Shown: piece after piece, positions 13,351-34,300 of the stretch
Numbering within the stretch: position 1 is the first letter of the stretch
Layout: each line of letters starts with the position of its first letter
Source of the DNA: Octopus vulgaris
Lineage: Eukaryota
Reading direction: 5' to 3'
Length of the DNA stretch: 64,000 bases
NCBI GenBank assembly: GCA_951406725.2
Contig: CATOCA020000001.1
Coordinates: forward strand, 7,626,001 to 7,690,000
Notes under the pieces: model-generated
Told to the model about the DNA's origin: nothing
What the model saw: the letters and a program-made list of their open reading frames with translations, nothing else
The model's database searches: none
Position numbers and translations under genes: made by a program

Positions 13351-16300
13351 CTGCAAAAGATACAATAAGAAATAATTGCAAAAGCATTAACGATAATATA
13401 AAACCTGTGAACTGTAAATTATAGATCTGACAAAGAAATTATGTGAATAGACGAATGAGAAATACTGAAGAAACACGGAAAATAGAAGACATTGTTATCT
13501 GTTTCTAAAGAGTTTGAGAAAAATAAGAAACAAGTTGAAATAAAAGCTGGAATTGGAGAAAACATTTAAAGATCGAATAAAATTGAAAGTTACACATGAG
13601 AAATCTTCTGGTAAACAACTGGCAGGAGAAGTGTTTGTGTGGGCAGCAGTATACGAAAAGCTCAAGAATCAACAAAGACTACCAATAGTTACACCATTTC
13701 ATCTATCCATTCATTTTCTTTGCCCTCTCTTCATAGGAGGGTTATAAGGGTAGAGTCCTCAGGCACCTCCTTCATACGATTCTATCTAAAGTAACCTTGA
13801 TTAGAAATTCTGAGAGAATTTCCAAGCACAACCAATTGAAACTATGGTTTTTATGCAAAAATTTATTCTTGGTTTAGCCCCAGGTCTTCTGTCAGTTGGC
13901 TCAGCTCGATGAATCCCTCTTTTGATTCTTTCCTGAGACATTTTAATCACATGCCGGTAGTATTGGAGCAGCTGTGACCTCTCAATGCAGAGAAGCAGTC
14001 GTTTGGACCTGGAGAGACACCCAAATTTCGAAGCTGCACGCGTTACTCCAGGACTCCTCAGAGGAACTCAATTTCAGTCGTTTTGATAACATCCCATATT
14101 CAAAGACTGAAATAGTCACCTGTGATGTGGTCCCTCCTATGATTAGTAAATAATAAAAGATTATCAAAATTCAGAAATATCTCGAAAGTGGGGAATGACT
14201 TCAACGGCACAAAGTAAAAATATAACACTGTTAGGTACATATCACATATTATAGAAGATACCAGCTGAAAAGTTAGTCTTGGAATACTGACTCCTAAAAA
14301 GGAATTCCTTCACTGGCTGAAGGCCACGATTTCAAAAGAATCTCCTACAGGAGAGGCCCAAGAGTAAGCAAAGCAATGGGAAGAGTTTTAGTTTGTAGGC
14401 AATAACAGAACATCTACACCATACACCTACAACACTTGGGTCCTGAAAGAATCCCTGCATCCTCAAACATCTACATCATCTGGAAAGTTATCACAATTTA
14501 TATGCAGGGGAGAGAAAAGGGGTTAATAGGAATTCTATATAGTATATCTAATGTACGCAATAGGTGCAGTGGTATCACAGGCAAGTTTACAGGGAGGACG
14601 GGTTAGGGTTGGGGAAGGACTTTTCAAGTAGCAGATACACGGGATTAGTTTGTAGTAAGAACAAGTATGAAAGACATATAGTTTCTCTAACCTGAGAGAC
14701 ATAATTAGAAGTGGGTGGGTGGGGGTCTATTCTCAAAGTGCAGTACTTTGAGGAAAAATGGGATGGAAAATGTACAGGGAACTGTTATGTCTACTGGCAA
14801 CTAAGGGATTCTGTCTCCAAATGAAGGAGAGATTGCATGAGGTGTATTTGTAAAGTGCAATGTTGCATTTAATGTAGATGATGCAGGAAAACTGGCAAGA
14901 AATGAGGTGAGCATACATCACTAGAAGTGTAATGTTAATGTGTTGAAAACCTGGGGTTAGGGAAAACTGGGTCTCAGAAGAATCTGTGATAGTGCACAAT
15001 ATAGTATAGATTTAGAAGGGATATGGTAAATGAAATTTGGATAAAGAAGTGCCTGGAATTCAAGTGGAAGAAAACAAGCGATTAAACCTGACAAACAACC
15101 ACAACGACTGTGGGAGAAGTCGTCTGACACATACAAACTTGGAGAAATGAACGTAAGATGTTGATTATATTGGACTGGTGTTAATGGATTGATTTTTACC
15201 CCTGTATATGACTGGTACATTTTGTATGACTGCTAGAGAAATAACAAATTAGCAATGTCACAAATGATGTCCTCTCTTAATTTAGATAAATCATTTCTAT
15301 CAGCTGACTGAGGGGATAATGTTACGACCTCTTGAGTCAGGGGTGAAAGGTTCAAATCTAGTCCCCCAACACAGCTCAATGTTCTGGTAAAGACATCTCT
15401 CTTCTGGTTCAGTCTACGAACCACGATAGGGATATTGCTGTAAAAAATAGGAATATTGTATAAATGATATTTTATGCTGTTAAACTTTCAGACAAGAGGA
15501 AATGGGATACTGTGATGTTCATGCCTTTCCAGTAAAGGAGAGTGAAATGATTTCAATTGATAAACAAAATCAAGTTGAGTTTGAAATTTCGGATGAGATT
15601 CATTAATTTTTTAACGTGAGTTTCATTAATTTACAATACTGAGTTCAATCCAGCCATGGACACAGTCAACAATGGGGGACTGTTTTCTATAGAGACTGGC
15701 ACTATATATTGACCAGGGACTAAAGAACTACAATCAAAGAGAACACAGCATGTCACACATAATGCAAACTCTCGTGTTTAAAAAGGTTACATTCGATAAT
15801 GTGGTCCTCTTCATCCAAGAGAAAGAATGATGTCACATCTGGAAACCTTCCCTCTTAACTCTGCCAGATTAAAACAGATATCTGCCTCAGCAACAACAAC
15901 AATAACAACCAATCTGTGAACTTTCCAAAAACGTAAACAAACTAAAACATTGTCATTAACTCACCTGTTTAGTCTTTAACACCATTATTCTTGAGTCCCC
16001 TTTTACAAACGACAATATTAACTCGACTGTATCTTCTAATTCAAATATTTTACACCTGTGCTGACCTCGGTGGATATTTTATGAAATTTCAGTGATATCT
16101 TTACTTTATAGCTAAACATTCAATTGGAAACTAGGAATGGAATCTGTTCTCAGTCAAAAGTTTAACTGAAAGCAAAATTTATAGAAATCAATTAGGTATT
16201 TTATACTCACCAAGTTGCTGCCATTTACCGGCCAACTTTTTGGACACCCGATGTAGATGCTTCACCTCTAGCGTTAGTATATCTGAAATAAATGTTTCCA

Positions 16301-31300: not shown

Positions 31301-34300
31301 AATAAACATTTACAAGTTTTACATTTAATAATAAAATTTCTTTATCTTTATTTTTATTAAACTCTATCTTGTTATTGTGAGACATTCAATTCCTGTCGTT
31401 ACTGGTCAACTGTTGACCATTATGGTTTTGGTCAATATTTCTGTACTTTCTAAAGTGGTCCCATGTAATAGCCCAATATGTCCACAATAAAACAGACTAA
31501 CATTTCTAAATCCACTCCCTCTCTCTCTCTCTCTCTCTCTCTCTCTCTCTCTAAAAACACATTAAATATTCTAACAATGTAGCAATTATCTCATTTAATT
31601 AACACTTGATGACAGTTTTCTCTTAGCTTTGTCTTTCTTTTCTTATAACTGTGCCAAATCTATGGCATGGCACAGTCCTCTCATCTCTAGAATTCACTAA
31701 TCAACATTCCTCTCTAATTAAGTAAAACTGAGCCCATAAAGACATGTCCTTTATGTGTATACCCTCCACCCGCACACAATCTGTCCCCTAAAAACATCTG
31801 CACAAGCCAAATTCCATACACCCTTCCCCAACATGATCCCTAACAAGATATAAAATGTAAGGTGAGGGTACACGATGTTCCTATGACAAAATAAGTTTAC
31901 ATTTCAGACATACAAATGTAAGAGAGTTAATGAATTATAGCTTATTAATTATCATGATAATTGGGTATATATGTGATACAATGGCACTGTGCTTGACGGT
32001 GCAATACTAGATATCAATATAGATTGTATATAATCTGAGTAAAGAACATATAACCTTCATTACTATGAATATGATTGTGTCTCAGCACAGCTAATATTAT
32101 GGTAGTTCCATGAGCAAACGAAGAAAGATATAACCAAGTCCACTGCCAAATACTAATGATTAATTCATTTCCTGGTCAAATAACAATGACTATCTTTCAT
32201 TAAATAATTTGAACGCAACAATCAAGACCAAAGGGTGAAACACTCAGAAAACTGTGCCTCTTTTAGCATTAATATCATCTAAAATCTAACAAGAGTGAGA
32301 AAAAGAATGACTATATGGATGGTAAATGTTGTTCAAACAATGTAATAAGTGTATATTATATATAGTTACAAAGAAGGATTTGTGTATTCAAGTCATATTC
32401 AATTTCTGATTGTATATTTTGTATAAACACCAATAATTTGTTTAAATATAAACAGATATTCACGGTTCAATACTAAATTTAACATTTAATAAAATTAAGT
32501 TCATGATGAATATTCTTATACAGAGTTAACATTTAATTATAATTTTCTAATTTGCAACTACAAAATGTATTCTAACCAGAGACATTCAGGGTACACAACC
32601 CCAGAAAATACAAAATATTACGACAGACATCTGGCTACATAACAACATCAAGAATAACCTATCAGAAAACTTACGAAAAATCTTAGTAGAAAAACAAACA
32701 ACTATCTTATTAACTCACGAGTTTACACCTAAAAAAATAAATTATAGTTCCCTCTTCCAGAAGACAATATTAACTCTATTGTGGCTTTTAATTTATCCAT
32801 TTTACCAAACATGTTAACCATGACTTTATGAAATTTCAGTAATATTTTTAATACAATTACTTTAGAGCTAACCTTTCAAATGGAAATTAGAAATGGGATT
32901 TGTTCTCCACCATTCTAATACGCAAAATAGCTGAGGTGAATGTAAAATCTATAGAAATTAATTAAGATCTCTAATTTTAAACTCATCAACTGTCTCTGCC
33001 ACAGTCTGCACTCCCTTCTCTTCAAACTTTGGACTCTCTGAAATATGTGTCTCCAAGTTTTATATTTATTTATAGCACAATCCCTTTATATTTATTAATA
33101 ATCTATATTTTATTAATGAGAAACATTCATACCATCAATGGCCAACCAGCGATCATAATGTTTTGGTCAATATTTTTATACTTTCAACAGTGGACCCATG
33201 TAATAGCCAATATTTAGCTCCAAAACGAACTCTAGTTGATCTTTGTAAATTTCCTCTCTCTGTTAAGATATCCTACATAATCTAACAATGCTGTAATTAT
33301 ATCACTTAATTATCACTTACTAACAGTTTATCTGTAGGCTTTGGTTTCCTTGCTTATATCTATGCCAAATCTATTGCATTTTCAAAACCCTGATCTTCAC
33401 TAACAACCTGTTTGATTCCAGTGTCAACAAATTTATTCATCAAAGATATAACAACAAACACATGTCACAACCACTTCAAGAAGGAGAAACATACACCTAA
33501 TCTCTTTGTTAAACATTGTTGCTGATAATCCCTAATTTTAACTTCACAGTTCACCAGAATGTCATCTCATTCAGGATATATTTGAAGGTTTCATGATCTG
33601 GTTGCTTGACAAACAAAACTGTCTCTATTAGCCTTAATATCCTCCAATTACAAACATAACAACATGGAATTGTGTGTTAAAGTCTCTCAAACTAGTGACA
33701 AATAATTTTACTCCTTTAAAATATTCTACTAAATTTAATACTTTACCAAAGATGACACTGATGTCCTTGTAAGTACTGTTGTATTTAATTATCTTTCAAT
33801 AACTAATTATCTTCTAATAACTCATAATTAATTATAGAGTTGATGGAGATTTATTGATACTTCAGTTACTCACTAATTATCTTGCAGAATCTCCATTATC
33901 TTTATGTTGCAGACTACAACCCTCTTGAAGTGTGACATGTTTCCTACTTGGATAAGGTCAATGTTTAGTGGATGTAGTGTGAGAGATATACTATTACAGA
34001 GAACAGACACTAGGAACACCTTTTATCATAAATCTGCCAGATTATGGCAGACCTCTGTCTACATAACAACATGAAGTATATTATTCTACACAATAAGGGC
34101 AATGGGACAAGCAGGACAAACAGACAGATCAGCAAAGAATATTCTTACCAACTCGACCTCTGCTTGTTACAGGTTTCAAACACCTCAGGCATCGTTTAAG
34201 TGGAACGTTTGAACATTCTTCACATGTCAGAAGGTGTTCACATGGATGAACTTTTGTTGTGGCCTCTTTATTTCTGCACAACAAACATCTGTGGACAAAA

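Follow-up and report, generated by a model that had tools for sequence, protein, structure and literature searches.

The stretch of DNA analysed here (64,000 nucleotides (nt) of Octopus vulgaris, assembly GCA_951406725.2, contig CATOCA020000001.1, positions 7,626,001 to 7,690,000; hereafter the window, in whose own numbering positions are given) carries one minus-strand gene that encodes ankyrin repeats, a RING and a death domain. Along the gene, ankyrin exons (at ~53.4, 51.7, 49.4 and 38.6 kb) are followed by a RING exon (34149..34288; C3HC4, Mind-bomb-like, ending in phase 1), seven short linker cassettes and two exons that together encode a death domain, all on the minus strand. Death-domain exon 1 (16211..16282; 72 nt, phase 1-1) supplies helix 1 together with the first turn of helix 2, including the conserved Trp, while exon 2 (13143..13350) encodes the rest of helix 2 to helix 6 and the stop. 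In gene order, the linkers comprise a 51-nt cassette at 32987..33037, whose donor reads ATGAGT (AT, not GT); an exon at 31224..31296 of the 72-nt SPKFADKG(V/M)QTD class, which as assembled is 73 nt long and out of frame with a stop; three 78-nt exons at 28751..28828, 26070..26147 and 24046..24123, the first and last of which encode identical peptides; and two 51-nt exons at 21163..21213 and 18505..18555. The 21163 exon fits the ELM pattern for binding of LC8, as quoted in PMC5746249, and the 18505 exon encodes the LC8-like DKASQTE. Exon 1 and the linkers lie in a shared intron scaffold (15832..33586), which by self-BLAST extends from each cassette by ~0.4 kb past the donor and by 0.5–1.2 kb before the acceptor, is 63–69% identical between the old cassettes and is interrupted by insertions of transposons and short interspersed nuclear elements. 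Recent tandem copying accounts for the three 78-nt cassettes, which are 89–96% identical over 1.3–2.2 kb.

An earlier note on this DNA had placed exon 1 and the linkers in one intron scaffold with a common 1-1 phase, and both statements were borne out; the peptides and exon ends that it aligned were correct, all eight cassettes lie where it had put them, and the AT donor of 32987 and the frameshift of 31224 are additional to what it reported. Each of the eight cassettes has a near-identical TTTCAG acceptor, a GTGAGTATAAAA-type donor (from which the 32987 cassette deviates) and phase 1-1. Over ~200 nt outside the splice signals, the upstream intron is 73–77% identical to that of the exon-1 cassette in six of the seven linkers (that of the 21163 exon is replaced beyond ~45 nt), and the downstream intron is 74–80% identical in all seven, with upstream alignment scores of 69–95 against a shuffled maximum of 12. 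The exon interiors, too, outperformed their shuffled controls in all seven linkers, both against window exon 1 (p 0.0015–0.011, 2000 dinucleotide shuffles) and against a family matrix of 46 exon-1 sequences (p ≤ 0.0002 in six, 0.003 for the frameshifted one). The cassettes are thus homologous exons within homologous flanking introns of the same orientation, as in a tandem exon duplication, and the linkers and exon 1 share a common origin. Symmetric phase 1-1 with lengths of 51, 72 or 78 nt permits in-frame inclusion, one copy being 73 nt as assembled.

In protein P0002, which has an identical exon 1, the Pfam Death profile (PF00531) scored 34.4 bits against a cut-off of 22.6 and was covered from position 2 to 71, and exon 1 aligned without gaps to helix 1 of human RIPK1 (E 2e-8), the nearest solved death domain. 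The model of P0003 is a predicted six-helix bundle (six helices over 269–353, predicted local distance difference test (pLDDT) score ~95), in which helices 269–277 and 283–289 fall in the exon 1 region. Since it encodes helix 1, is covered by the Pfam profile from position 2 and matches RIPK1 without gaps, exon 1 is much older than the octopus family. Among 100 fetched stretches of 10 kb, 99 of them upstream of exon-2 matches, the last scaffold cassette was a 72-nt Trp-bearing exon in 63, no cassette was present in 18, and in the remainder ends were mis-called or exons damaged.

Living paralogs present a graded series between exon 1 and linker. At G000:C2:151.94 Mb two intact Trp-bearing exon-1 copies stand in tandem, and in O. 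bimaculoides (P0007/P0008) either of two intact tandem copies can precede exon 2. Paralog L119 has three 72-nt copies without the Trp that are 67–73% identical to an exon 1, the SLNLEEN class (72 nt, likewise Trp-less) is 57–60% identical to one, and the 72-nt exon of L072 with a Gln-Thr (QT) motif is 67% identical to exon 1 of L032 (SPKFEDKGVQSDAQLLGATSKQG vs TPKLEEKCLQDVAKLLGANWQQV). All 15 distinct 72-nt upstream exons outscored each of their 300 shuffles. RING directly precedes exon 1 in proteins P0038, P0025, P0049 and P0183 of O. bimaculoides and O. sinensis, and at 8 of the 33 loci with both RING and exon 1 no cassette exon was found between them, although diverged linkers can escape detection (P0020).

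An intron-only tree was computed from 51 cassettes and 1011 columns (unrooted; 10 of 61 rows, namely the L043 pair and eight poorly filled ones, were left out). A single split between exon 1 and linkers was rejected (approximately unbiased (AU) test, p 5e-43), the L119 copies nested within an exon-1 clade (100/99), and the 54-nt linkers of L070 paired with exon 1 of L095 (100/99). A common clade of the eight window cassettes was rejected (AU p=0.0003): exon 1 of the window falls with exon 1 of other genes and its linkers with the same linker class in other paralogs, the same 78-nt cassette precedes at least five exon-1 types, and QT linkers occur in O. bimaculoides (P0028, P0040, P0051) and are common to three Octopus species. 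The duplications are therefore earlier and family-wide and happened more than once, cassettes later moved between genes, and only the 78/73-nt group was recently amplified. Of the proposal in the earlier note, that a helix exon was duplicated in tandem and its spare copies became short linear motifs, the common origin holds, the derivation is well supported and the term short linear motifs suits the LC8-like linkers, predicted to be disordered, while the implied local history within the window gene fails. Sequence comparison gives good support to the derivation of linkers from death-domain exon 1; for the QT exons we infer this direction.

The loss of the helix is accompanied by a change in what is conserved. 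In exon-1 classes L9 is kept in 10 of 10 and V12 in 9 of 10, and in linker classes K7 and Q10 are each kept in 12 of 16 and T11 in 8 of 16, so that conservation moves from the helix-core Leu/Val to K-x-x-Q-T. One of the seven window linkers matches the ELM LC8 pattern and five more carry [DE][KR]x[VS]QT; that pattern recovers only 13 of 67 known LC8 sites and SQT binders are known, according to PMC5746249. LC8 partners present Gln-anchored motifs of 8–10 residues in disordered regions, such as the gephyrin site EDKGVQCE (PMC12057147), which the window motifs resemble. The linker of P0003 (207–259) is predicted to be disordered (pLDDT <50, from an alignment of 28 rows that is gappy there), and the octopus genome has a canonical LC8 gene (region of G000:C25:23627337). 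Taken together, the linkers and exon 1 are homologous cassettes, and the linkers are likely spare exon-1 copies that lack the helix core and are predicted to serve as disordered LC8-docking motifs. Docking of LC8 and dimerisation between RING and death domain would be somewhat the better bet.

Splice joints were read from the contigs of four runs guessed to be RNA (no run is recorded as RNA). The 18505 exon was joined to exon 1 in contigs of all four runs and the 21163 exon to the 18505 exon in two, the 78-nt exons were joined to one another, and the end of the RING exon joined a 31224-type or 78-nt-type exon directly, skipping 32987. Because the runs are guessed to be RNA and are in contig form, and because eight near-identical copies of the window gene exist in the genome, these joints cannot be assigned to the window locus. 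The linkers connect serially, both with one another and with exon 1, unlike mutually exclusive exons, and in O. sinensis 14 annotated isoforms of one gene differ in whether they carry zero, one or two linker exons. The 32987..33037 cassette is likely a pseudo-exon; its AT donor recurs in paralogs, and its low coverage was by itself given no weight. Several cassettes also have a donor-like CAG/GTGAG site ~260 nt past the donor (15943–15950, 20885–20892, 30183–30190 and 32714–32721), possibly a vestigial exon end or mini-exon, or a recursive splice site.

A number of observations weigh against this account, some bearing on the direction of derivation and others on the function of the motifs. In the trees, the rejection of a single split is driven by decayed copies without QT; the test for a single origin of the QT-type cassettes as a whole gave a borderline p of 0.051, and their sister exon 1 is weakly placed (90/41); the cassette tree is star-like at the base as well as unrooted; and a tree from shorter flanks (106 cassettes, 430 columns) leaves the split between exon 1 and linkers unrejected (p 0.29) and does not separate the directions. 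The nesting of the L119 copies depends on the downstream intron alone, and intron conversion could mimic it. Family members were found in three species (O. vulgaris, O. sinensis and O. bimaculoides); word-based and profile searches with 30 matches named found none outside Octopus, which is weak evidence of absence, and no look-alike windows were found in other genomes. A true outgroup, of the kind that the earlier note envisaged, was accordingly not found. A reverse or mixed history, in which a pre-existing QT linker provided the scaffold, exon 1 took it over by recombination or gene conversion, and the apparent intermediates are chimeras, would fit the recombination of cassettes between paralogs, the poorly resolved base of the tree and the weak placement of a TPKLEEKCLQDV-type exon 1 among QT cassettes in the best tree. 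We nevertheless regard it as improbable, given that the exon bodies are homologous over their full length, 3' half included, that exon 1 matches helix 1 of RIPK1, that exon 1 sits in the scaffold in divergent paralogs where no linker cassette was found between RING and exon 1 (8 of 33 loci), and that for the TPKLEE type the closest introns on either side are those of other exon-1 cassettes. The shared flanks could also have been an independent dispersed repeat that had landed next to unrelated exons, in a genome that is rich in repeats. Three DNA searches for the scaffold, in each of which the best 40 of 318–362 candidates were scored and weak copies may thus escape, listed 117 places after the removal of secondary fragments (11 rows of one search and 4 of another). 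As many as 104 of these lie within 25 kb of a match to death-domain exon 2, and the 12 that were fetched of the remaining 13 all coincided with exons of the family (a RING exon, exon 2 or a linker). With homology continuous through both splice sites and the exon, the idea of a dispersed repeat, which the earlier note had named as a possible refutation, is largely refuted and retains next to no probability.

As to the motifs, the canonical TQT occurs in only one of the seven window linkers, many paralog linkers lack QT (VKT, VQA or SQR), and part of the conservation of Q10 is explained by shared ancestry. In the most widespread 51-nt class the motif is intact although the donor is dead, and for this reason an intact motif need not mean selection. 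Constraint, for which the earlier note had suggested a ratio of non-synonymous to synonymous change, was estimated within classes as proportions of differences of 0.06 (non-synonymous, pN) against 0.12 (synonymous, pS), which are uncorrected, carry no significance test and cover 13 codons. The gene copy in the window is moreover broken as assembled. The frame of exon 2 is interrupted by two extra T (13294 and 13303), both of which are missing from contigs of runs X1 and X12 and one from those of X4, and exon 2 is open in the near-identical paralog L021. The counterparts of the 31224 exon in L099 and L112 are 72 nt long and open, and contigs of three of the four runs deviate from this exon at 31270 and at its 3' end. 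Most contigs lack the two frameshifts, but given the near-identical paralogs these may equally be errors of assembly or marks of a broken allele or gene copy. Two of the seven window linkers (31224 and 32987) look unusable as assembled. In the main rival, the linkers do come from exon 1 but are mere spacers or decaying debris that owe their likeness in QT to one KxLQ-type ancestor and have no LC8 function. Such an explanation would account for the dead-donor cassette and for the linkers without QT, would suit a single clade of QT-type cassettes, should they form one, and gains from the presence of K7 and Q10 already in exon 1 of L032 and L092. Against it, most old classes, whose flanks are 20–27% apart, keep K7, Q10 and often T11 yet lose L9, further classes carry NKQVQTE and DNEVQTE, and QT linkers are common to the three Octopus species, so that we hold the spacer explanation to be unlikely, although far from negligible.

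For the reading that we prefer, linkers as exon-1 copies turned into LC8-docking motifs, the following course can be envisaged. The symmetric 1-1 phase of exon 1 means that extra copies keep the frame, and in paralogs exon 1 together with its introns has undergone tandem duplication on more than one occasion. An upstream copy, without its partner helices, would then lose the Trp and the core Leu/Val and become a linker, an order suggested by the graded series. One or a few copies may have gained K-x-V/T-Q-T from a KCLQD-like exon 1 by about two substitutions, with in-frame insertions and deletions changing the linker length to 51, 57 or 78 nt. The distribution of cassettes among paralogs would reflect amplification and exchange through recombination, unequal or ectopic, within the shared scaffold, together with alternative inclusion. 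Finally, LC8 dimers might clasp two chains to each other in the segment between RING and death domain, the number of exons tuning dimerisation. More tentatively, and with the odds somewhat against so full a picture, exon 1 could be a recurring factory of linker modules, whose orphan helix copies gave rise, possibly several times independently, to LC8 sites of one motif per exon that move between the more than 100 paralogs, are spliced in and out and dial the oligomeric state of a putative immune-type ankyrin-RING-death-domain sensor family.

The processes that are combined here (helix-exon duplication, exon substitution, motif birth and multivalent LC8 clients) are each known from other systems. 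In vertebrate COE/EBF the helix 2 exon is tandemly duplicated (PMC2394523), and there as here a single helix-coding exon was duplicated and is included in series; COE/EBF is a single-copy gene whose extra copy stays a recognisable helix, whereas the octopus copies lose their core, are predicted to be disordered, vary in length and belong to a family of more than 100 genes. Tandem duplicated exon substitutions in human are mutually exclusive, make mostly conservative changes and keep the core (PMC9741552). They resemble the octopus cassettes as homologous neighbouring exons that are alternatively spliced, and P0007/P0008 are close to that stage, but the other octopus copies are additive and have abandoned the fold. 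As in the multivalent LC8/DYNLL clients ASCIZ and gephyrin (PMC5963919, PMC10046861, PMC12057147), a stretch between folded domains, here predicted to be disordered, contains several K-x-V/T/S-Q-T-like motifs; unlike in those clients, there is one motif per exon, their number varies by splicing and by paralog, their origin is traceable to a folded-domain exon, and binding is a prediction. LC8 motifs that were recently gained are known (10.1101/2023.09.15.557927), and short linear motifs are held to be born ex nihilo by few point changes in unconstrained sequence (PMC4654906). The final step envisaged here is likewise a matter of few point changes, but it starts from a duplicated domain exon that brings along its own splice sites, so that the new motif would be born as a movable symmetric module. 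Our literature search, incomplete in coverage, found no description of the octopus family or of a route from a domain-helix exon to a motif exon. The origins of motifs and disordered linkers are hard to trace as homology is quickly lost (PMC4654906, PMC9741552). If the reading is true, the octopus family would offer a traceable case of a piece of a folded domain recycled into short binding motifs, in which both the transition from helix to motif and selection on it become testable peptide by peptide, because the ancestry is preserved in slowly diverging introns and every stage can be seen in living paralogs. LC8 valency set by splicing would in turn be a testable handle on an octopus gene family that is strongly expanded and uncharacterised.

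The extent of that family is indicated by a search of the genome with part of exon 2, which gave 131 matches among 150 candidates scored. Relatives in O. vulgaris, O. sinensis and O. bimaculoides are named MIB1/MIB2-like at NCBI, and Pfam places Ank, C3HC4_3 RING and Death on family members. Like the Mind bomb E3 ligases (MIB1/MIB2), they combine ankyrin repeats with RING; unlike them, they have one RING followed by a death domain, and they were found here only in Octopus. Mind bomb proteins are marked by an MZM/REP N-terminus and several RINGs. In five scanned proteins, some of whose models may be partial, Pfam gave no hits to MIB-specific N-terminal domains and one RING each.

Further variation was seen among the paralogs. 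In L091, L097, L105, L107 and L116 the RING exon lies ~1.7 kb before exon 2 with no exon-1 cassette found between, and these seem to be a subfamily that lost helix 1. L094, L106 and L113 (G000:C1:102.70-102.73 Mb and 216.92-216.97 Mb) are tandem death-domain arrays in which exons 1 and 2 are fused without an intron and contain stops, likely amplified retrocopies. On G000:C29 (L012/L038, L028, L050 and L064), linker cassettes have shrunk to tandem units of 152–166 bp whose exons measure 36 or 51 nt and in some cases carry CxxC (CPKCKEK, CPRCREK) in place of QT, and on G000:C31 (L148-L150 and L154-L156) the scaffold houses more linker classes, namely FPKSQNKQVQTE, TPALVDNEVQTE and 87-nt Ser/Glu-rich exons. 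Repeat linkers rich in Ser/Thr/Gln (STSQP, STSQQ) precede related death domains in P0045, P0053 and P0008, one of these proteins being named G-protein-coupled receptor (GPCR) 126-like in O. bimaculoides.

Elsewhere in the window, the ankyrin-repeat exon at 38538..38735 was placed from its translation and the family architecture, and those at 49287..49433, 51699..51760 (a short one) and 53286..53448 have approximate ends, all on the minus strand. Multi-kilobase (ATC)n arrays occupy the introns between ankyrin exons (~42320-48660 and 51820-53080), and long purine/pyrimidine tracts lie at 5.4–9.6 kb and 53.5–61.2 kb. Degenerate transposon-like insertions, which by eye we take to be remnants of DNA transposons and helicase-like elements, are present at ~1250-2600, 11500-12700 and 26820-27380, the last inside a linker intron. 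A short coding-like stretch on the minus strand at 63290-63370 may be an upstream exon or part of a neighbouring gene.

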